Shown here: one piece after another, positions 4,030 through 30,835 of the stretch
Layout: the number at the start of each line of letters is the position of its first letter
Position numbering within the stretch: position 1 is the stretch's first letter
From: Methanothermobacter thermautotrophicus str. Delta H
Lineage (GTDB): Archaea; Methanobacteriota; Methanobacteria; Methanobacteriales; Methanothermobacteraceae
DNA length: 32,000 nucleotides
Reading direction: 5' to 3'
Assembly (NCBI RefSeq): GCF_000008645.1
Contig: NC_000916.1
Span: 1,290,001-1,322,000 of the forward strand
Notes under the pieces: model-generated
What the model was told of the DNA's origin: nothing
The model's database searches: none
Seen by the model: the letters and a program-made list of their open reading frames with translations, nothing else
Position numbers and translations under genes: made by a program

Positions 4030-4859
4030 TTAGATGAGGGCGGCTGCAAGGATCATGATACCCAGTGCCCAGCAGTAGTAGGCGAATATGTAGAGGTCCC
4101 TCTCCTTTATGAGTTTAAGGAGGAACTTTATGGCTATGTAACCTGACACAGCCGCTGCAGCAAACCCTGCAACCATGCTGGCACCGAGGAGGTTCATTCC
4201 GGCCCCAATGTCCTTGATCTGGATGAGGGCGGCCCCCAGTATCGCGGGTATGGAGAGGAGGAAGCTGTACCTTGCTGCAAGTTCCCTCTCAAAGCCGAGA
4301 AACAGGCCCGCAGAGATTGTTGCACCTGAACGTGATATGCCGGGTGCTATGGCAAGGGCCTGGGCACACCCTATTATGAGTGACTCCCTGACACCGAGTT
4401 TTTCAACTGGAAGCTTCTCCCTCACACGCCTGCTGATATTCTCTGATCCCCACAGCAAAAAGCCTGTGACCAGCAGGAAGAATCCCACGGCGGTTAAACT
4501 GCTGAAAAGTGACTCAAAGAAGTCCTTGAACAGTACACCAGCAAGGCCGGCCGGCACAGTACCGATGATCACCATCCAGGCAAGCCTCTTGAAGGGGTCC
4601 TCAATGATTCCCCTCCTGAATCTACCTGCGGGATGTCCCTCAGACTTGAGAGGAAAGCCCCCAGCATGTGAACTATATCGTTCCAGAAGTATCCAATGAC
4701 AGCCACCAGTGTGCCCACATGCAGCACGGTGTCGAATGCGAGGCTGGAGCTGACACCCATAAGTTCCGGCACCAGCACCAGGTGGCCTGAGCTGCTTACT
4801 GGCAGGAATTCGGTCAAACCCTGCACTGTTCCAATGACTATGGCCTGAAAAACGTCCAT
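4030..4859 (-). pseudogene. uppP: undecaprenyl-diphosphatase (UppP/BacA), reading frame broken by an apparent 1-nt frameshift between 4572 and 4638
   Basis: Two adjacent ORFs together make one UppP. The N-terminal piece is [29 protein letters not shown]...[15 protein letters not shown] (frame ends at TGA 4569-4571). The C-terminal piece is ...[31 protein letters not shown]...GISRSGATI... (frame open from 4638 down to 4030). Start is ATG at 4859 (or 4865). Confidence 0.85.
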
Positions 4860-4861
4860 GA

Positions 4862-4903
4862 ACATCACTTTTAACTTATAAGTTATCACTTATAACCTCA
4901 TCA
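4862..4903. repeat. array of 7-bp units ACATCAC TTTTAAC TTATAAG TTATCAC TTATAAC CTCATCA, the same unit as the array upstream of parA
   Basis: Read directly from the sequence. It fills almost the whole 44-nt gap between the ilvE stop (4904) and the uppP ATG (4859). The 18-mer TAACTTATAAGTTATCAC at 4872-4889 matches TAACTTATAACTTATCAC at 27957-27974 at 17 of 18 positions. Confidence 0.6.
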
Positions 4904-5987: not shown

Positions 5988-6060
<73 letters not shown>

Positions 6061-6084: not shown

Positions 6085-6156
<72 letters not shown>

Positions 6157-7840: not shown

Positions 7841-8050
7841 CTGCCGGGGTTAGACTTAATAGAGCTATGTTATAAGATATACTTAAAATTTGATATAAAG
7901 ACTATAAAAAGATAGAGATGATTATTGATGAAGATCAACCATCAGTTTTTTGGATCCATAGAAGAAGATAAGGGCGAGGATTAACATAATTGAGCATAAG
8001 ATAATGATGATTGGTATCAGTTTAGTTCAAATGGAGGAAGATGATCAGCA

Positions 8051-15559: not shown

Positions 15560-15653
15560 TATTTCCTATAAAATATATACTTTCAAATAAGTGCTAAGAT
15601 TATATAAAACAATAGGGAGATTTAACCTTATCAATTTCCAGGAGGATTATCCG

Positions 15654-18126: not shown

Positions 18127-19809
18127 CTACATGGTCTCCGGGGCATGAATTCCCAGGAGATTGAGGGCGTTTCTGAGGGTTTTTCTAACAGAATCAACAA
18201 GTCTAAGGCGTGCACCCTCAAAATCAGATCCTATAACAGGCGTGGACCTGTAGAAACTGTTGAAGGTATTTGCAAGGTCCTGGGCATACTGTGCCACAGG
18301 GTGAACCCTCCTTGCAAGTGCAGATTCTTCAACCACCACAGGGAAACGTGCAAGAAGACGGACAAGTTCTCTCTCATCACCTTCGGGCTTCCATCCATCT
18401 TCAATATCCTCCTCACCAGTGAATGACGCCTTCTCAAGGAGTTTACATGCCCTTGCATGGGCGTACTGGATGGATGCACAGCCACGCTCAAAGCTGAGGG
18501 CATCATCCCACCGGAATACGATGTGCTTCTCGGGTGAGAGCCTTGCTATGTAGTACCTTATGGCACCGTTGCCGATGGACTCTGCAATATCATCTGCAAC
18601 ATCATCGGGAAGATCCCGCCGCTTTTTAACCTCATGAAGGGCCCTGCTGTGGGCTTCATCCATAAGCTCATCCACGGATATGAACACACCCCTCCTGGTG
18701 GACATTGAACCCTCAGGGAGTGTTATGAACTCATAGAATATGACCTCGGGTCTTTTACCTCCCAGGAGTTCCACTGCAATCCCCACCTGCTCGGCTGCAA
18801 GTTTATGGTCCGATCCAAGGACATCGATGATAACATCCCCCTCCTCTGACTTCTGGAGGTGGTAGGCTATGTCCCTGGTTGAGTAGAGGGAGGTTCCATC
18901 TGACCGTGTGAGCACCAGTTCCTTCTCAAGGCCGAATTCCTCAAGGTCGAGGTATAGGACGTCGTTCTCGCCGGTGTAACCGGTTTTTCTGAGGGATTCT
19001 ATCACCCTGTCAACGGTACCATCCCTTACGAACTGGCCCTCCCATACGAAGCGGTCGTGGTGAACGTGGAGCCTTTTCATGGTCTCCTCCATCCCGCTGA
19101 GGCAGTACTCAACAACCTTCCTGAATAGCTCCTCGTTCTCCCCTGCCTCATACTTCCTTATTAGTTCATCCACCTCGTCCCTGATCCCTGGATTTTCCTT
19201 TAGCCTCTGGTTGACCTCGAAGTAGAGTTTACCTACCCTGTGGTCCATCTTATCCCCGGGGTAGTCCTCAAGGTCTCCATCAAGGTTCAGCAGGCCCCAG
19301 ACTATCATGGCGATCTGTCTACCCATGTCATTAACATAGTACTGGGTTTCGACGTCGTAGCCAGCCATCCTCAGTATCCTTGCAAGGGAATCCCCTATGA
19401 TGGCGTTCCTTATATGGCCTATGTGAAGGGGACCGTTGGGGTTGGCCGAGGTGTGTTCCAGGATCACCCTCTCATCCCTGGGGGGATGTGAACCGTAGTC
19501 ATCCTGGATGGACTCCAGTAGTCTGCTGGAGAATCTGCCGTAATCGACGAAAAAGTTGATGTAGGGCCCCTTGGATTCAATGGTCTCAAATATTTCAGGG
19601 GTTTCTATCACAGACATTATATCCGCCGTTATTTCAATGGGGGCCCTTCTGAGTTTACCTGCAAGTTCGAAGGATACTGTGGATGCAAGGTCCCCGAGCT
19701 GGGGGTTTGGTGGTTCCTCCAGTTTTATTTCAGGGGGTACCTTTATACCGAGCTTTTCAAGTGCCGCTGTTATTGAATCCCTAGCCTCTTTTTCAATGTA
19801 CCTGAACAT
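18127..19809 (-). CDS. argS: arginine-tRNA ligase
   Basis: 560-aa class I aaRS with the HIGH-type motif ([15 protein letters not shown]), an MSTRRG (KMSKS-like) motif and a C-terminal DALR anticodon-binding region. RBS GGTGA. Confidence 0.95.
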
Positions 19810-19826
19810 CTCTTCACCTGCCTTAT

Positions 19827-20261
19827 TCAGAGTCCCTTAAGCCAGAGTGTTATGTATCCAACCCTAGGTATCATGAGGGGCTGTGAACCCACCGTCAGCA
19901 CCCTCGCCTCAACCTGTGATGGATAGACAGGGGCCGGGTCCGGGTCCTGGTTGTTATCACCCTTTGTGATGTAATATCTGGCCCCGTTTCTGTCAGTCTC
20001 AACGCCTATGACCCGGTGTATCACGGGTTCAGGGAACCAGGTGGCGTCATAGATGATTATGTCACCCTTTCTGATGCTTTCAGGGTCCATCTCCTGGACC
20101 CCGAAGAAGCTGGTCTTCTCGATTATGACGATGTCTCCACGGTAGAAGACGGGTTCCATGCTCCCTGATACAACCACGTTCATGTGCTGGGAGGCAACCA
20201 CTGCCAGCACAAGTAGAAGTAGGTACGCGGCTGCCTCAATTACTTCGCGTCTGTCGTTCAT
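19827..20261 (-). CDS. signal peptidase I, archaeal/eukaryotic Sec11 type (S26B)
   Basis: 144 aa with an N-terminal TM segment, then [16 protein letters not shown] and KGDNN motifs. Confidence 0.88.
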
Positions 20262-20269
20262 ATGGACAC

Positions 20270-21919
20270 CTATCTGAGTACTGCACCTGTATCTGCGGAT
20301 CCTGCCAGTTTACGGTAACGTGCAAGCCATCCCTTAACACTGCGGCGGGGTTTAACTGCACTCTGGAGTCTCTCCTCAATTTCCCGGGGACTAAGGTCAA
20401 CCTCAAGTTTTCTTGAGGGTATATCTATTCTGATGATGTCCCCATCATTCACCGCGGCAAGGGGACCGTCCTCCATGGCTTCAGGCGATACATGGCCAAC
20501 GCAGGGTCCCCTTGTACCACCTGAGAACCTTCCATCGGTTATAAGGGCGACCCTTTCAAGGCCCATGCCTGCAATCGCAGATGTCGGGTTGAGCATCTCC
20601 CTCATGCCGGGTCCTCCCTTGGGCCCCTCGTAGCGTATGACGATCACATCACCCTCATCTATCCTGCCACCGAATATGGCCTCCATGCATTCATCTTCAC
20701 TGTTAAAGACCTTCGCAGGACCCTCATGAACCATCATGTCCTCTGCAACGGCTCCCTGTTTCACGACCGATCCCCGGGGCGCCAGGTTACCCCTGAGTAT
20801 TGCAAGACCGCCCTCACTGTGGACTGGACTGTCAAGGGGCCTTATGACGTCCCTGTGTCCTACCTTCACATTCTCAATGTTCTCCTGGACTGTTCTGCCT
20901 GTGCATGTTACACATTCCCTGTTTATATGGTCCTCCAGGGTTTTTAAGACGGCGGGTATCCCGCCTGCCCGGTCAAGGTCCAGCATCATGTGTTCACCTG
21001 CCGGGGAGATTGATGCTATGTGGGGTATTACCCTGCTCAGCTCATCAAAGAGGTCCAGGTTGATGTTGAGTCCATCGATTTCAGCTGCGATGGCCGGGAT
21101 GTGGAGTGTGGTGTTTGTTGAACCCCCCAGGGCGAGGTCAACCATAACCGCATTCTCAAAGGCCTCCTGGCTCATTATCATGGTTGGCTTCAGATTTTCC
21201 TGCACCATTTCAACTATCCTCTTACCTGAGAGCCTTGCAATCTGCCTCTTACGTGAGCTTACGGCGTGGGCGGTTGCACAGCCAGGGAGGCTCATGCCCA
21301 GGGCCTCCGTCAGGCATGCCATGGTGTTGGCTGTGAATAGACCCGCACAGGATCTTGGCCCCGGGCAGGCGCATCTTTCGAGTTCTTCCAGTTCATCCTC
21401 TGACATCTCACCTGCGCTGACTGTTCCAACACCCTCATAAACGTTTATGAGGTCCACCTTTCTTCCCTTAAATTCTCCAGGGAGCATTGGCCCGCCGGTC
21501 ACGACTATGGCCGGTATGTCAAGTCTGGCCGCTGCCATGAGCATCCCCGGGACTATCTTGTCACAGGTTGGAAGCAGCACCAGCCCGTCAAGGGCATGGG
21601 CCATCGCCATGCTCTCCACGGTGTCTGCAACTATCTCCCTTGATGCCAGGGAGTACTTCATCCCGTCGTGGTTCATGGCTATTCCATCACATATCGCCAT
21701 GGTGTTGAATTCAAATGCGACACCCCCCGCAGCATTCACACCCTCCTTAACAGCCTCTGCAAGTTCCCTCAGGTGGATGTGGCCGGGAACTATGTCAGTG
21801 TAACTGTTGGCTATACCTATGAATGGTTTCTCGAAGTCATCATCTGTCAGGCCGCAGGCCCTCAGGAGGGATCGGTGGGGCGCCCTCTGGATTCCCCTCT
21901 TTATTGTATCACTCTTCAT
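20270..21919 (-). CDS. ilvD: dihydroxy-acid dehydratase
   Basis: 549 aa. [25 protein letters not shown] and [12 protein letters not shown] are IlvD/Edd family signatures. Confidence 0.95.
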
Positions 21920-22003: not shown

Positions 22004-23233
22004 ATGGACTTCCCGGTAATTAAGTTTTTGATAGCTCTTGCAATAGGTGCGCTGGTGGGTATTGAGAGGGAGCGGCGGATCAAGAGGACAGAATTTGCAG
22101 GTATAAGGACCTTCATGCTCATATCACTTGTAGGGGCACTGTCAGCCTATCTTTCAGGAAAGTTTTTTCTGGCGTTCCCTGTGGCATTCCTTGGGATCAT
22201 CCTCCTCATAGTCGTAAGTTACACAGCAAGCACCAGGGAGGGCGGTGATATCGGGGTAACCGGGGAGGTGGCTGCCCTTGTCACATTTCTCCTGGGGGCA
22301 ATGTGTGTTGCATATGACTACCGGCTGGCGGTGATGCTCTCAATCATAGTAACGGCCATTCTGGCCCTGAAGAGGTACATACACGTTGCAGTGAGGAGGA
22401 TAAGTGAGAGGGAGATGATAGACACCATAAAGTTCCTGATAATAGCCTTCGTAATCCTCCCCCTCCTTCCTGACACCGCAACTGGCCCCTAGGGTGTCTT
22501 CAATCCCTACCAGGTCTGGCTCATGGTGGTTTTCATATCTGCAATAAGTTATGCTGGATACATAGCCATGAAAATAGCCGGACCCGAAAGGGGCCTTGGG
22601 GCTACAGGGATCATAGGGGGCCTGGTTTCAAGTACTGCAGTTGTAACTGCAATGGCAGGGAGGGTGAGGGATTCGGAGGACCTTATGGGACCAGCGGTAT
22701 TCGCGGCGGTCATTTCAAGTTCCATGATGTTCTTCAGGATACTGCTGGAGGTCTCAGTTGTTAACTCCTCACTTGTGGGTTATGTGGCCCCTCCCATGCT
22801 TGCAATGGGTGTTCTGGGTGTTATGCTTGCAGCCATGTTCATGAGGTCATCATCAGGGATCGATTCAGACATCAAGATTGAAAATCCCTTCTCTGTCAAA
22901 CCAGCCCTAATATTCGGGGCCCTATTCCTTGCAATACTCTTCATATCAAAGGCTGCCAGCGTCTATCTTGGCCGTGGTGGTGTACTTGTGGCCAGTGTGA
23001 TCTCAGGTGTTGCTGATGTTGATGCAATAACTGTGAGCATGTCAATCCTTGCAGCAGGGGGCTCCATCTCACAATCAACTGCTGCAGCCGCCATAACACT
23101 GGCGGGGGTCTCAAACACCCTGATAAAGGGGGGAATAGCCCTTGTTCTTGGAACAAAAAAATTCGGGAAAAGGGTGGGGACCCTTTTCGTTGCAATCATA
23201 ACAGCCGGGTTGCTGGCTGTTCTCTTAACATAG
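22004..23233 (+). pseudogene. MgtC/SapB-N plus DUF4010 integral membrane protein interrupted by an in-frame TAG at 22490-22492
   Basis: [37 protein letters not shown]... is an MgtC-like N-terminus. The ORF stops at ...ILPLLPDTATGP*, and the same frame continues GVFNPYQVWLMVVFISAISYAGYIAMKIAGPERG... The ATG at 22523 is exactly in frame and has no RBS. Combined length is 409 codons, typical from memory for fused MgtC-DUF4010 proteins. Confidence 0.75.
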
Positions 23234-25069: not shown

Positions 25070-25190
25070 TTTCAATCACCATATTAAAAACTGGCAGTAA
25101 ATTATATATAATTTTTGTCACTATTTCAGTATAAAATGTAACAGATAGATGGGGAGGGGACTCCAGGGATATAACGAGTGAGGTGTGTTT

Positions 25191-25928
25191 ATGGATAGAG
25201 GTGTTAATGAAGCCCTGAAGATCATGGGTCTGACAGATTATCAGGCCTCAGCCTACACTGCAATGGTCACGCTGGTATCTGCCAGGGCAGTGGAGGTTGC
25301 CGAGGTCTCGGGCATTCCAAGATCAAGGGTCTATGAGGTCCTGAGGCAGCTCTCAGACAGGGGCTTCGTGGAGGTTGAGAGGGGTAAACCCATGAGGTAC
25401 CATGTGGTGCCACCCTCAGAGGTGTTCAGGAGGGAGAAGGGTAGGATCATCAAAAAACTTGATGAGGCCATGTCCAGGCTTACCGAAATCTATGAGGACA
25501 GGGTTGCCAGGGTACCGACACCTGTATGGCTCATCCATGGACAGGAGAAGATTGTGAAGAAGGAACTGGAGATAATATCCCGTTCAAGGAAGGAACTCAA
25601 GATGAGGATGGGCTTCATATTCAGGGATGAAATAAAGGCACTCCGCCCGGCCCTTGATAGAATAACCGATCGTGGAGTTGAGGTGAGGATCATGGCCAGG
25701 GATGTAATTGATGTACCCGGTGAGGTTGAGGTGAGGAGAATACCCCCTGTCAGGATGCTTGTCCGGGATTCACAGGAGATGATGTGGATATTCTCACGCT
25801 TCACACCCGATGGTGCACCCATCCCTGAAACCGCCATCGGGATATGGAACCAGTACCCTGAGATCGCAGAGAACTATGCCAGGATATTCGACACGGTATG
25901 GAAGGGGGGTGCCGGGAGGTCACCTTAA
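25191..25928 (+). CDS. TrmB-family transcriptional regulator
   Basis: LTDYQASAYTAMVTLVSARAVEVAEVSGIPRSRVYEVLRQLSDRGFVEVERGKPMRY is a TrmB-type wHTH. The gene is divergent from hcp. ATG 25191 follows a GGTG RBS; the track start is GTG 25185. Confidence 0.85.
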   Translation: MDRGVNEALKIMGLTDYQASAYTAMVTLVSARAVEVAEVSGIPRSRVYEVLRQLSDRGFVEVERGKPMRYHVVPPSEVFRREKGRIIKKLDEAMSRLTEIYEDRVARVPTPVWLIHGQEKIVKKELEIISRSRKELKMRMGFIFRDEIKALRPALDRITDRGVEVRIMARDVIDVPGEVEVRRIPPVRMLVRDSQEMMWIFSRFTPDGAPIPETAIGIWNQYPEIAENYARIFDTVWKGGAGRSP

Positions 25929-26120: not shown

Positions 26121-27938
26121 ATGAGGATACTGTTAATTCACTCTGATTACTTGAAATACGAGACAAAGAATAAAACAGGGATAGCAGAGGAAATCCCTGA
26201 AGATAAGATGCAGGGAGATTTCAGGGAGTCCCTGGTGGTTTTCACAGCAGTGGAGGCTGAAGATGAGGATAACCCTGAATCAGTAATTGAAAACGCGGTT
26301 AATGAAATAATAAAGGTTTTCAATGACGTTAAGGCAGAGAACGTCGTGATATACCCTTACGCACACCTCAGCTCCTCGCTCAGCTCCCCCAAAACAGCGG
26401 TGGAGGTCCTTGAGGGAATGGAATCAGCCCTCCGCAGCGAGGGTGTTGATGTCTCAAGGGTTCCTTTCGGGTGGTATAAGGCCTTCAAGATATCCTGCAA
26501 GGGTCACCCACTATCAGAGCTATCAAGGAGCATAAGGCCACAGCCCCCAAAGGTGGAGGAGGAGAGCGAGGAATCCGAGTGGTTCATACTCCACAGGGGA
26601 GAGACGGTTAAACCCGGAGACTTCGAGTTCAAAAACAGGGATCTTGAGAACCTGGTGAAATATGAGCTTGGCGAACTTGAATCCTCTGGTGAAGAACCAC
26701 CACACGTTAGACTCATGAGGGAGAAGGGACTTGCAGACTATGAGCCATCAGCAGACGTTGGACACCTCCGGTGGTACCCCAGGGGAAGGCTGATAAGGGA
26801 CCTTCTTGCAGACTACGTCTACATGCTTGTCACCAGTGAGGGGGCAATGCCAGTTGAGACACCCATAATGTATGACCTCGAGGACGAGGCAATCAGGGTA
26901 CATGCAGAGAAGTTCGGTGAAAGACAGTACAGGATGAAGAACAGGAAGGAACTCATGCTGAGATACGCCTGCTGTTTCGGAGCCTTCAGGATCCTTTCAG
27001 ACTCCTTCCTGACGTGGAAGAACCTGCCTGCATCCATATATGAACTCTCGACCTACAGCTTCCGGCTTGAAAAGAAGGGCGAGGTGGTTGGTCTTAAGAG
27101 GCTCAGGGGCTTTACAATGCCGGATCTCCACACGGTATGTGCTGACCTTGATCAGTCCCTTGAGGAATTCGCCAGGCAGGTCGAGATGTGCATGAGGACC
27201 GGCCAGGACCTCCAGGTGAACTATGAGGTCATATTCAGGGCCACGGCTGACTTCTATGAGGAGTACAGGGAATGGGTACATGAAGTAGCGGATAAAATCG
27301 GAAAACCAGTGCTCCTGGAGATACTCCCCTCAAGGAAGCACTACTGGATTGCCAAGATGGACTTCGCAGCCATAGACTACCTTGGAAGACCGATAGAGAA
27401 TCCAACAGTTCAGATTGACGTTGAAAGCGGTGAGAGGTTCGGGATAACCTATGTTAACAGTGATGAGGAGGAGGTAAACCCAATAATCCTCCACTGCAGT
27501 CCAACAGGCAGCATTGAGAGGGTCATATGCAGCCTTCTTGAGAAGACGGCCATTGAAATGGATGAAAAACCACCTATGCTGCCCTTGTGGCTCTCACCCA
27601 CCCAGGTACGTGTGCTTCCAATTGCAGAGCGCCACATGGAATATGCCAGTGACCTGGTATCAGAACTTATCGCAGCTGACGTAAGGGCTGACCTGGATGA
27701 CCGATCAGAGACCCTCGGAAAGAAGATAAGGAATGCGGCCCAGGACTGGGTCCCCTACGTTGTTGTTATAGGTGACAGTGAAATGGAGGGCAAACTCACG
27801 GTCAATGTGAGGGAAACAGGTGAAAAGCTTCAGATGGGCCTGGATGAACTCATAGAACGTATAAGGGCTGAAACAGAGGGCATGCCCTTCAGAAGACTGC
27901 CGCTACCGGTTAAACTATCCGAGAGGATAAACTTCTAA
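26121..27938 (+). CDS. thrS: threonine-tRNA ligase, archaeal type with N-terminal archaea-specific editing domain
   Basis: 605 aa with a class II core (motifs around [11 protein letters not shown] and the C-terminal anticodon-binding domain). The N-terminal ~140 aa are unlike bacterial N1/N2 editing domains. RBS GGTGAT at 26111-26116. Confidence 0.93.
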
Positions 27939-27941
27939 TAA

Positions 27942-27949
27942 TTTTTTTT
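27942..27949 (+). terminator. T8 tract 4 nt after the thrS stop
   Basis: TAATAATTTTTTTTAATC; an oligo-T archaeal terminator. Confidence 0.6.
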
Positions 27950-27953
27950 AATC

Positions 27954-28002
27954 TGATAACTTATAACTTATCACATATACTTTATAAGTTATAAATTATA
28001 AC
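27954..28002. repeat. seven contiguous 7-bp units TGATAAC TTATAAC TTATCAC ATATACT TTATAAG TTATAAA TTATAAC upstream of parA
   Basis: Read directly with strict 7-nt phasing over 49 bp. The array ends 12 nt before the GGTGAT RBS (28015-28020) of parA and must overlap the parA promoter. Confidence 0.7.
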
Positions 28003-28023
28003 TTAGATCCAGCAGGTGATGAG

Positions 28024-28793
28024 ATGGGAGAGGTAATTTCAATCATAAACCAGAAGGGTGGCTGTGGAAAGACAACAACAGCCGTTAATCTATCAGCAGC
28101 ACTTTCCTCCTTGACAGGAGGGTTCTTGTAATCGACATGGACCCCCAGGGCAATGCAACCACTGGGTTCGGGATAAACAAGTCAGAACTGGAGTCAACAA
28201 TATACACGGTCCTGAGCCGAAAGGCAGCACTGTCCTCTGTGATAATGCCTGCAGAGCTCCAGGACCTCTACATAGCACCCAGTAACATATCCCTCAGCGG
28301 TGCCGAGATAGAGCTCAGCAGTGAGATAGGATACCATGCCATCCTCCAGGAGTCACTGGGGGATGTGAGGAATGACTTTGACTACATATTCATAGACGCC
28401 CCACCATCCCTGGGCATACTCACACTCAACGCCCTCGTGGCCTCTGACAGTGTCATAATACCCATACAGGCAGAGTACTATGCCCTTGAGGGCATGGCAG
28501 ACCTCCTGAAGACAATGAACCTGGTGGAAGAACGACTCCAGAGTCCCTGTCCGATAAAGGGGATACTGCTGACCCTCTACGATTCAAGGACACGACTTGC
28601 AAGGGACGTACAGAGGGAGGTTGAGAAGTTTTTCGGTGAAAGGGAGAACATCTTCAGGACAAGGATACCCAGGAACGTTCGCCTTGCAGAGGCCCCCAGC
28701 CACGGTAAGCCCTGCATAACCTATGACCCCGAAAGTACAGGTACAGAGGCCTACATGAAACTTGCAGCTGAAATACTTGAAATGGAGGGATAG
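28024..28793 (+). pseudogene. parA: ParA/Soj-type partition ATPase (deviant Walker A), frame broken by an apparent 1-nt deletion near 28105-28112
   Basis: [30 protein letters not shown] then a stop at 28129-28131. The other frame, open from 28089, reads ...[22 protein letters not shown]... and continues to 28793 with typical Soj motifs (FIDAPPSLG, IPIQAEYYALEG, RIPRNVRLAEAPSHGKP). Confidence 0.85.
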
Positions 28794-28794
28794 G

Positions 28795-29088
28795 ATGACA
28801 CAGAAGAAGGGCCTTGGAATGGGACTGGATGCACTGATCCAGTCAAGGACAAGGAAGGAACCTGAAAAAGATACCGGAAAGGATGATGATGCACGCATCC
28901 AGGAGGTCATACGGGAAGTTAAGAAGAATCCCCGGGTTACCCTTTGGTCTGCAAGATCAGCAGCTGTTTTAAGGTACCTTAAAAAGACGCAGCCAGAATT
29001 CAGCATAAGCAGGGAGGCATCTGCCCTTATAGAGCAGGCGGTGAGGAATAAGTACCCTGATATATGGGAGCTGTTTTCTGAACTTTAG
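28795..29088 (+). CDS. 97-aa protein: ParB/Spo0J N-terminal box (KKGLGMGLDALI), a charged linker, and a predicted ribbon-helix-helix-like C-terminal domain; candidate ParA partner / centromere-binding protein
   Basis: The ATG at 28795 is 1 nt after the parA stop, with a GGAGGGA RBS. Sequence: MTQKKGLGMGLDALIQSRTRKEPEKDTGKDDDARIQEVIREVKKNPRVTLWSARSAAVLRYLKKTQPEFSISREASALIEQAVRNKYPDIWELFSEL. The track start at 28762 overlaps parA and is rejected. Confidence 0.65.
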   Translation: MTQKKGLGMGLDALIQSRTRKEPEKDTGKDDDARIQEVIREVKKNPRVTLWSARSAAVLRYLKKTQPEFSISREASALIEQAVRNKYPDIWELFSEL

Positions 29089-29114: not shown

Positions 29115-30227
29115 TCACTCCCTTCTATCTTTACCCCATTCAGCCAGTGTGGACTGGAAGCCATCAAGGTATATGAATGGTTCTGCCCTATTCATCCTCA
29201 CACCCATCTTTCTGAGCCTTTCAGGTGTGAGGCGTGTCCTGCTGCGCATCTCAATTATTCTCCTGGCAGACTTGGGACCGATCCCGGGGACCCTTATGAT
29301 TTCATGGTAGGGTGCGCTCTCAAGGTCAACAGGAAAGATATCCATATCCATTGCAGCAGCATATTTCGGGTCAAGGTCCGTGTCAAGGTAGCCCCCACTG
29401 AACCTGAGTTCATCTGGACTGAAACCATAGGAACTGAGGAGGGAATCTGCCTGATAAAGCCTAAGAACCCTCATAGGATCAGCTTCATCCCTGGATTCGA
29501 GGGGAGTGCCCTCCATGGGCTGGAAGCCGCTGAAGTAAACCCTTTTAATTGAGAAACGGTCATGGATCCACCCGACTCTTTTCACTATATCCTCATCTGT
29601 TTCATCAACGGCCCCAACCATGAGCTGTGTGCTCTGACCTGAGGGTGCAAGTTCGGGGTGCCTCTTCCGTAACCTGTGTATCCACCTCATTCTCCGGAGT
29701 ATATCAACACCGTAATCCTTGGTTGATGAAAGCTCATCCAGGCCATCGGGGGTGGCTGTCTCGATGTTGATGCTCACACGGCTTGCAAGCTCCATGGCCC
29801 TCTTTATGCTATCCATGGAGGATCCCGGTATGATCTTGAGGTGTATGTAACCACCATAGCCTTCCAGACGGAGGATCCTGAGGGTTTCTATGAGACGCTC
29901 CATGGTTTCATCCGGGTCGTGGCTGACACCGGAACTTAGGAAGAGACCATCAACATATCTCCTCTCATAGTAGTCAAGGAATACCCTGGCAATTTCCTCA
30001 GGGCTGAGCTCCACCGGCATCTCGCATGAGCTGTTTATACAGTACCTGCAGTCATTGCAGCACCTGTTGGTGAGGAGCACCTTGAAGAGGGGGACCCTGC
30101 AGCCCCTGTAACTGGTGTAGTAGATGCCAGGGACAGCTGTATTTCGCTGTGATGGGTCAGCACTGTAATCACACAGGTCAAACTGGGCGCTGTCACTTAG
30201 TACCTGGACCCTTTCACCGAGACTCAT
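29115..30227 (-). CDS. radical SAM protein with C-terminal helix-hairpin-helix domain (putative DNA modification/repair radical SAM family)
   Basis: CxxxCxxC in LLTNRCCNDCRYC. Other family-typical blocks as I recall them: GLFLSSG, TMERL, GYIHLKIIPG, RVSINIE. The C-terminal IIRVPGIGPKSARRIIE is an HhH motif. I prefer start ATG 30227 (MSLGERVQVLSDSAQFDLCDY) with an A/T-rich TATA-like element about 25-35 nt upstream, which suggests a leaderless mRNA. The track start is 30293. Confidence 0.75.
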   Translation of the reverse strand: MSLGERVQVLSDSAQFDLCDYSADPSQRNTAVPGIYYTSYRGCRVPLFKVLLTNRCCNDCRYCINSSCEMPVELSPEEIARVFLDYYERRYVDGLFLSSGVSHDPDETMERLIETLRILRLEGYGGYIHLKIIPGSSMDSIKRAMELASRVSINIETATPDGLDELSSTKDYGVDILRRMRWIHRLRKRHPELAPSGQSTQLMVGAVDETDEDIVKRVGWIHDRFSIKRVYFSGFQPMEGTPLESRDEADPMRVLRLYQADSLLSSYGFSPDELRFSGGYLDTDLDPKYAAAMDMDIFPVDLESAPYHEIIRVPGIGPKSARRIIEMRSRTRLTPERLRKMGVRMNRAEPFIYLDGFQSTLAEWGKDRRE

Positions 30228-30835
30228 GGAGGTATATATGTGGAGGCTTCTATTAATTATTTTACCAGTACATGGACTGCCAGATTTTACCATTAGATTG
30301 GACTGCCAGATGACCAGAAATTAACCATTAAATGAGTTTTAATGACAGTTGGATATATGAACATTTTAACGGCTATTTCACAATTTAAACCACCGAATCA
30401 GGCACGAAATTCGAATCAGACCTCTAAATGATCCAGATGGATTTTGCAGCCTCTTTCAGTATAATCCATTGGACCATCGCAACCAGAAAGGAGCTTAAAA
30501 TGACTTATTTTTCGAAAAAGACGATTTAGATTGTCAAAGAGGTTTAAAGGGGAAATAAAAATGACACATCCATTATCAGCATATTTGAAAAAGGATTAAA
30601 AGGTTTTAATTGAAAAAAAGAGTTTTATGATGCCTTATTTTTTGATTTGGAGGCAAAATATTTATATATGGCTTCGCAGTTATATTCCTACCATCCAGAG
30701 GGAACGATAAACGTATTTCTGGATTGGAGGCGGTACAATTAAGCGATTTTTTATTACATCCCTGTTCCTCCTTCCCATGGTAGCAGCAGGTGTGGCTGCT
30801 TCCCATGATGCGGAGGATGGAAGAACTTTGTAACC

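Follow-up and report, generated by a model that had tools for sequence, protein, structure and literature searches.

What is the function of a run of 7-bp repeats that stands directly upstream of a gene for a ParA/Soj-type ATPase in the archaeon Methanothermobacter thermautotrophicus str. Delta H? The locus was analyzed within a window of 32,000 nucleotides (NC_000916.1, positions 1,290,001 to 1,322,000). All coordinates are those of the window unless a contig is named; contigs used for comparison carry numbers prefixed with L. An original prediction for this DNA had taken the repeats as operator and centromere of a ribbon-helix-helix (RHH)-like "mini-ParB" encoded downstream. The analysis indicates, with a probability of about 0.7, that the array is a segS-type binding site of the SegB protein encoded two genes downstream, i.e. 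the Methanobacteriales counterpart of the Sulfolobus site. On homology and anatomy of the locus, the best reading is that the array would act as a centromere-like site and as the autoregulatory operator of segAB, and the operator and centromere reading of the original prediction is to this extent supported.

Direct reading of positions 27954-28002 gives seven contiguous heptads, TGATAAC TTATAAC TTATCAC ATATACT TTATAAG TTATAAA TTATAAC, exactly as had been claimed. A weaker eighth heptad, TTAGATC, extends the array to 28009. The unit is the palindromic hexamer TTATAA followed by one base, mostly C or G, and the period is 7 bp. Tandem Repeats Finder reports this period for 27956-28005 with 7.1 copies and a score of 58. 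The placement proposed earlier, between the thrS terminator and the ribosome-binding site of the ATPase gene, is also correct. On the left, the array is bounded by the stop codon of thrS (NCBIfam NF003068, E=2.3e-279) and a T8 run, which is likely an archaeal oligo-T terminator; on the right, it is followed by AGGTGAT and, at a distance of 15 bp, by the ATG of segA. The array is identical in four further conspecific contigs.

Could such a pattern be an ordinary archaeal promoter, with stacked TATA-like boxes in AT-rich DNA and no specific iteron function? TTATAA resembles a TATA box, the G+C content of the array region is only ~35% and two more promoter-like regions contain ATATACTT as well. 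The statistics point in another direction. TTATMACTTATMAC has 14 matches in the window at up to two mismatches (0.44 expected) and a three-heptad pattern has seven at up to three mismatches (0.00 expected). Except for one match at 7869, all matches of the two- and three-heptad patterns lie inside the main array or inside a second array at 4869-4896. When four consecutive heptads are compared with TTATAA (phased score, maximum 24), both arrays reach 22, whereas every other AT-rich promoter-like segment of the window scores 17 or less. Other promoter-like segments of the window thus contain no equivalent phased runs, for which a check had been proposed. Furthermore, 30 Markov simulations of 150 kb yielded no array-scoring cluster. 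The profile of 93 collected heptads (T.94 T.97 A.94 T.83 A.89 A.94) has C or G at position 7 in 86% of the units despite the AT-rich surroundings. An archaeal core promoter consists of a single TATA-like element ~26 bp before the start and does not require phased repeats. Compared with this architecture, the flanking phased heptads, and arrays at places where no promoter is expected, are left unexplained by a transcription factor B recognition element (BRE) and TATA box. As the strict 7-bp phase is also kept across genera amid diverged flanks, an ordinary promoter is a very improbable explanation.

An even smaller probability is assigned to a neutral 7-bp slippage microsatellite or to an RNA structure of the segA leader or the thrS terminator. 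The repeat is tandem and partly palindromic, and a 92-nt stretch with the array folds slightly better than its shuffled versions (z = -2.4), but any palindromic repeat would fold in this way. The imperfections of the units are conserved, and arrays occupy orthologous positions in different genera. Additionally, an Rfam search at the array matched no family and the array lies mostly upstream of the inferred transcription start.

The earlier caveat that the region must also contain the TATA box appears to be sound. As a heptad, the fourth unit, ATATACT, is poor (4/6 match), and it is probably part of the TATA element; together with the following TTATAAG it probably represents a core promoter element of the TATA type for segAB, which lies inside the array. 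The corresponding block in the middle of the array, RTATAMTTTATAAR, is kept in three Methanothermobacter lineages. With TTTATAAG as the TATA box, transcription of segAB would start near 28011; a literature search found no map of transcription start sites for Methanothermobacter. Elsewhere in the window, ATATACTT is present at 7877 and 15575 as well as at 27975, and at the latter two positions it grows to ATATACTTT, whose recurrence at 15575 had been pointed out. The three sites (7870-7884, 15575-15583 and 27975-27983) all belong to AT-rich promoter-like segments, and ATATACTT is probably the local form of the TATA element.

The putative ligand of the array is a protein of 97 residues. A phmmer search of the PDB matched its residues 13-93 to Sulfolobus solfataricus SegB (7duv_A, E=2.5e-8), whereas no Pfam or NCBIfam family was matched. 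SegB is a structurally proven RHH centromere-binding protein. The homology covers the RHH region of the SegB structures 7DUV and 7DV2 and so favors the RHH part of the earlier designation, while "mini-ParB" has to be replaced, since the system is an archaeal SegAB and the protein is no ParB derivative. The 97-aa protein and ThrS are identical to the M. thermautotrophicus records AAB85932.1 and AAB85930.1, respectively. As AAB85932.1 is labelled "hypothetical protein" in public records, its naming as a SegB homolog is a gain for annotation. The ATG of segB (28795) directly follows the segA stop (28791-28793), and order and co-orientation of the two genes are the same in all 12 orthologous loci. 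A total of 345 SegB homologs was found; the named organisms among the best 120 of these 345 are all methanogens and nearly all Methanobacteriales.

SegB proteins carry the C-terminal signature (K/R)(D/N)P(K/R)I(G/T)(V/L)WS (PMC12139799). The protein of the window bears KNPRVTLWS, and its residues N45, P46, R47, L50, W51 and S52 are invariant across 42 SegB homologs. The ribbon reads NPR(V/I)(T/S)LWS in the Methanobacteriales proteins, compared to DPKIGVWS in Sulfolobus. In the crystal structure of the SegB-DNA complex, Lys52, Trp56 and Lys75 touch bases, whereas Pro72 in the α2-α3 loop makes dimer-dimer contacts along the DNA; Lys52 is replaced by Arg in euryarchaea (Yen et al. 2021, PMC8682754). 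According to the alignment, residues contacting bases in Sulfolobus SegB are partly altered here (K52->R47, G54->T49, K75->S70), while the equivalents of W56, S77, R78 and the dimer-dimer residue P72 are kept. This combination fits the same binding mode on a different hexamer.

At the N-terminus (28795-28845, residues 1-17), the peptide LG(M/R/K)GLDALI is kept across the 42 Methanobacteriales homologs, with L7, G8, G10, L11, A13, L14 and I15 invariant. Its central residue is Met in M. thermautotrophicus and the M. marburgensis clade and Arg or Lys elsewhere. We take this peptide to resemble the N-terminal motif by which bacterial ParB binds ParA. A phmmer search of the PDB with the 28-aa N-terminal peptide gave no match.

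The SegB sites of Sulfolobus are experimentally defined. Chromatin immunoprecipitation sequencing and footprinting yielded a 13-bp motif, TCTAGA-S-TCTAGA, and sites are located just upstream of segA and at ~30-50 further chromosomal positions, most of them intragenic; the SegAB proteins act in segregation (Kabli et al. 2025, PMC12284271). For S. acidocaldarius, segS was described as three 7-bp repeats, [AGNGTNN]x3 (PMC12139799). The system studied here shares several properties with SegAB/segS of the Sulfolobales (S. solfataricus SSO0034/SSO0035 and S. acidocaldarius). The gene for a SegB homolog with a probable RHH domain and the signature ..NP(K/R)I.(V/L)WS directly follows a gene for a Walker ParA-type ATPase, the candidate site is found just upstream of the ATPase gene, further sites are present elsewhere on the chromosome and, at the level of sequence, 6-bp palindromes plus one base S recur with a period of 7 bp.

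On the other hand, the hexamer is TTATAA here and TCTAGA in Sulfolobus, 4-9 contiguous units are present instead of 2-3, and some genera have arrays at the 3' end of segB as well. The ATPase comprises 256 residues and is Soj/ParA-like, in contrast to 220 residues for Sulfolobus SegA, and the N-terminal peptide of SegB is LG(M/R/K)GLDALI. The host is a methanogen with rod-shaped cells instead of a spherical crenarchaeon, and the system is known from sequence. The canonical Sulfolobales motif TCTAGASTCTAGA has no match in the 32-kb window at up to three mismatches, compared to seven expected. This absence is consistent with the changed contact residues (K52R, G54T and K75S). Since the SegAB family is defined by its proteins and not by its site, the missing motif marks a diverged site and does not exclude the locus from the family. 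For Thermococcus sibiricus, no site was found near segAB and a different euryarchaeal sequence was suggested (Kabli et al. 2025, PMC12284271). Features of archaeal centromeres and the variation of euryarchaeal SegAB were named as open questions in the 2016 Barilla review (PMC5120986), and no Methanobacteriales SegB site is reported in the literature found. The kind of system, SegAB, is already known; what appears to be new is the hexamer TTATAA, the longer arrays and the extra conserved sites towards the origin.

Orthologous loci were retrieved via SegB homologs. In M. thermautotrophicus, in the M. marburgensis and M. tenebrarum clades and in two Methanobacterium-like loci, phased TTATAAS arrays precede segA by 15-45 bp. 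The flanking intergenic DNA diverges while the 7-bp phase persists across genera. In a Methanobrevibacter metagenome-assembled genome (MAG), the arrays are found 290-630 bp upstream of segA. The conservation check proposed with the original prediction therefore turned out in its favor, since phased arrays precede the orthologous parA/segA genes of further Methanothermobacter species as well as those of Methanobacterium and Methanobrevibacter. Arrays are also present directly 3' of segB, in the tail-to-tail gaps of L010, L011 and L120, where no promoter is expected. In the Methanobacterium-like loci, this gap is shared with a convergent gene for a radical-SAM protein with a helix-hairpin-helix (HhH) domain, and in the Methanobacteriota MAG L120 an array of eight units overlaps the stop codon of segB. 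Non-redundant Methanobacteriales DNA of 150 kb contains 16 high-scoring clusters, and 12 of them are no more than 600 bp away from segAB.

Independently of protein homology, 185,579 genomes, one per species, were scanned with TTATMASTTATMASTTATMA at the level of DNA. Two Methanobacteriota loci, those of the Methanobrevibacter MAG and of L120, are among the first 120 matches listed, and both of their arrays abut segAB. The matches listed are dominated by 7-nt tandem repeats fitting TTATMAS in cyanobacteria (Microcystis, Okeania, Nostocales), Thiomargarita/Parabeggiatoa and Bacteroidota. Long 7-nt repeats, e.g. in L066 (2853-3000), L025 and L069, are unrelated to segAB.

Further arrays are found at a distance from segAB. 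The second array of the window, 23.1 kb from segA, occupies the 42-bp gap between the stop codon of ilvE (4904, minus strand) and the ATG of uppP (4861, minus strand). Arrays at this position are also present in Methanothermobacter KEPCO-1 (L215, 7172-7213), in Methanobacterium LT607756 (L217, 1599-1661, nine units) and in four Methanobacterium-like metagenome contigs (L133, L134, L136 and L203). The relatives listed by the metagenome search with IlvE have identities of 68% or less; the other 76 IlvE-bearing contigs among the matches listed (~420 kb) contain no array. Wherever this second site exists, it is located upstream of uppP, at distances from the uppP start of 7 bp to ~460 bp. Two tRNA genes (5989-6060 and 6085-6156) are located just upstream of ilvE and separate it from the next gene. 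A third array, TTAAAAG TTATAAC TTATAAG TTATAAC, was identified ~3.1 kb left of the window start (L213/L214, 15177-15204). It lies at the convergent junction of the genes for AcnX and a GAF-domain protein and overlaps both 3' ends. An array after AcnX is also present in the M. tenebrarum clade (L216, 15102-15129). The conserved positions of these distal arrays across some genera have a parallel in Sulfolobus SegB, which binds at multiple sites. The 10 kb that follow segB in M. thermautotrophicus contain no array. In L010, two more TTATAAS arrays (18768-18788 and 18854-18874) are found 8.4 kb from segAB, between a ferredoxin-like and a flavin mononucleotide (FMN)-reductase gene, both on the minus strand.

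In L216, a cdc6/orc1 gene (19037-20182) is located 5 kb beyond the AcnX array. Beside it, a perfect 52-bp tandem repeat with 3.7 copies (20360-20552), which contains ACATTTCAACTGTAAAA, is probably the replication origin with repeats of the origin recognition box (ORB) type. By synteny with L216, cdc6 and the presumed origin of M. thermautotrophicus would be situated ~40 kb from segA on the side of the distal arrays. A literature search on the MTH1412 origin found nothing. Replication-origin repeats were rejected as an identity of the main array, as the ORB-like 52-bp repeats adjoin cdc6, ~40 kb away.

The distribution of the arrays bears on whether SegB-bound arrays are transcriptional operators only, which would autoregulate segAB and control uppP or other neighbors without any role in segregation. 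This is rather unlikely. The main array does extend over the TATA-like unit and the region where segAB transcription would start, the second site is always upstream of uppP where present, and a regulatory role has been allowed for the Sulfolobus sites (Barilla 2016 review, PMC5120986). However, arrays occur in the tail-to-tail gaps after segB and at the convergent AcnX/GAF junction, there partly within coding sequence. The variable distance between the second site and uppP is unlike that of a fixed operator, and the Sulfolobus sites are mostly intragenic and serve proteins that act in segregation. With arrays downstream of segB and at distal conserved sites, the term "operator" alone is too narrow.

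Equally unlikely is that the arrays are bound by a different protein, such as a Methanobacteriales transcription factor or chromatin protein, which would regulate segAB. The distal arrays indicate that the motif is not exclusive to segAB, and Methanothermus fervidus retains segAB without nearby arrays. Moreover, a gene for a TrmB-family regulator (25185-25928) is located just upstream of thrS in M. thermautotrophicus, between a prismane/rubredoxin gene and thrS, and in the M. marburgensis clade at the same position. This gene is missing, though, from loci that retain the arrays, namely those of the M. tenebrarum clade and of Methanobacterium. In geometry (6-bp palindrome plus S, 7-bp period), the arrays match the SegB sites known from experiments exactly, and in four genera arrays lie close to both ends of segAB. 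The TrmB motif of Thermococcales is TATCAC-N5-GTGATA. A TrmB-type operator was rejected because this motif is not found at the array and the TrmB-like neighbor is absent where arrays persist.

Several observations weigh against assigning the arrays to SegB as its partition site. M. fervidus (L009) has segAB and a SegB β-strand described as identical (NPRITLWS), but lacks TTATAAS arrays in the 10 kb to each side; its segA starts 14 bp after a radical-SAM gene, and its sites may be elsewhere or lost. The distal sites turn over, with the second site absent in L216 and the third absent in L215 (KEPCO-1) and L217. As all TTATAA units are TATA-box-like, conservation upstream of segA could partly reflect promoter constraint. 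Foldseek places SegB chains first for the AlphaFold monomer of the 97-aa protein, yet with E ~1.3 and a root-mean-square deviation of 12 Å. This model is mediocre (mean predicted local distance difference test score, pLDDT, 72.6), with the helix order α1-(β region)-α2-α3-α4; an RHH ribbon forms in the dimer only. Finally, the nearest solved relatives of the ATPase are bacterial, namely M. xanthus ParA (8ray, 2.8e-72) and Thermus Soj (6e-60), compared to only 6e-19 for Sulfolobus SegA (7dut). Mechanistic details from Sulfolobus may therefore not transfer, although SegA has been treated as an orthologue of bacterial ParA (PMC12284271; PMC5120986).

We infer binding, cooperativity, repression and a role in segregation from sequence, and they could be connected as follows. 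Each TTATAA hexamer, with its dyad symmetry, would accommodate one SegB dimer, whose two-stranded β-ribbon (NPR-V-T-L-WS) would enter the major groove. The 7-bp spacing would set neighboring dimers ~240 degrees apart. These dimers would touch through the α2-α3 loop with its conserved proline and form a left-handed protein spiral over 50-60 bp of DNA. Such a nucleoprotein block could offer many flexible N-terminal LG(M/R/K)GLDALI tails to the DNA-bound ParA/Soj-type ATPase and thus give rise to a partition complex. The block would cover the region from the TATA-like unit through the inferred segAB start, so that the operon would be repressed and autoregulated. The extra arrays may be additional loading sites on the origin-proximal side of segAB; in other genera such sites would lie downstream of segB, and in M. 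thermautotrophicus at ilvE-uppP and the 3' end of AcnX.

Contiguous heptads upstream of a ParA-type gene are also known from the omega/delta system of plasmid pSM19035 (inc18), to which the original prediction had likened the array. This analogy is correct for the contiguous, spacerless 7-bp repeats and their position. Omega binds its heptads as RHH dimers, and these serve as operator and centromere, as is proposed here by analogy for the SegB arrays. The analogy does not extend to the WATCACW consensus or to an omega-family protein. The omega heptad is non-palindromic and the orientation of its units is meaningful, in contrast to the palindromic TTATAA; only the TATCAC unit in each M. thermautotrophicus array fits WATCACW. 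The 97-aa protein matched only SegB in the PDB, with no similarity to omega, and the present system is chromosomal and archaeal. Omega, ParG and ParR have been compared structurally with SegB, including a left-handed protein spiral around DNA (Yen et al. 2021, PMC8682754).

ParG/ParF (TP228) and ParR/parC (pSK41) likewise combine a small RHH protein, whose flexible N-terminal tail activates the partner NTPase, with short iterated repeats upstream of the operon as centromere and operator. ParG sites are tetramer boxes and ParR sites are repeats of ~20 bp. The partner of ParR is the actin-like ParM, and no sequence homology of ParG or ParR to the 97-aa protein was detected. Bacterial chromosomal ParABS is comparable in its Soj-like ATPase and in sites that apparently lie within ~40 kb of cdc6/oriC. 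It differs in that SegB has neither the helix-turn-helix nor the CTPase domain of ParB, and in that 16-bp parS palindromes take the place of heptad arrays.

A wider proposal goes beyond this locus and is put forward tentatively, being itself rather less probable than not. The TTATAAS arrays might be the euryarchaeal SegAB centromere (segS), with an origin-proximal cluster in Methanothermobacter that comprises cdc6/oriC, the AcnX 3' end, ilvE-uppP and the segA promoter within ~40 kb. The machine would be chimeric, made up of a Soj ATPase of the bacterial type and a SegB RHH domain that bears a ParB-like, Soj-activating N-terminal peptide. If this is true, SegAB would be at work in a methanogen with rod-shaped and reportedly diploid cells (review PMC5120986), in a parS-like, origin-linked layout as opposed to the dispersed pattern of Sulfolobus. 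No dedicated chromosome-partition machine other than SegAB has been described in archaea, and the DNA sites of SegAB are known for Sulfolobales only. Phased TTATAAS units with their coordinates are a precise cross-genus candidate for the euryarchaeal SegB site.

Features of the segAB locus and of the second heptad array in the window
Feature	Position	Strand	Remarks
thrS stop TAA and T8 run	27936-27938 and 27942-27949	+	left bound of the array
Main heptad array, candidate segS	27954..28009	none	eight phased units, consensus TTATAAS
Deviant central unit and following heptad (ATATACT TTATAAG)	27975..27988	+	conserved block, recurrence elsewhere in the window
Shine-Dalgarno sequence AGGTGAT of segA	28014..28020	+	3 nt before the ATG at 28024; direct reading
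ParA/Soj-type Walker ATPase in segA position	28024..28793	+	Pfam AAA_31/CbiA; frameshifted in the window
segB	28795..29088	+	97-aa SegB homolog, predicted RHH-type DNA-binding domain
Second array, TTTTAAC TTATAAG TTATCAC TTATAAC	4869..4896	none	ilvE-uppP gap; Tandem Repeats Finder and pattern search

The frameshift of segA results from the deletion of one nucleotide in a C run at 28106-28107, which reads CC in the window and CCC in the three conspecific contigs L001-L003, where the intact product has 256 residues. If this lesion is real, the strain would lack a functional partition ATPase. Two other genes of the window are disrupted relative to conspecific contigs. In uppP, a 1-nt deletion (4569-4640) splits the gene into open reading frames of 106 and 181 residues, and in mgtC (22489-22491) TGG is changed to TAG. 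The three disruptions are either sequence errors or true lesions of the strain.

Directly after segB, a convergent gene on the minus strand (29115-30293) encodes a radical-SAM protein with a C-terminal helix-hairpin-helix. This neighbor is common to Methanothermobacter, Methanobacterium and the L120 MAG. The 5' end of the gene and the adjacent upstream sequence contain a 26-bp tandem repeat (30259-30311) with 2.1 copies and a score of 83.

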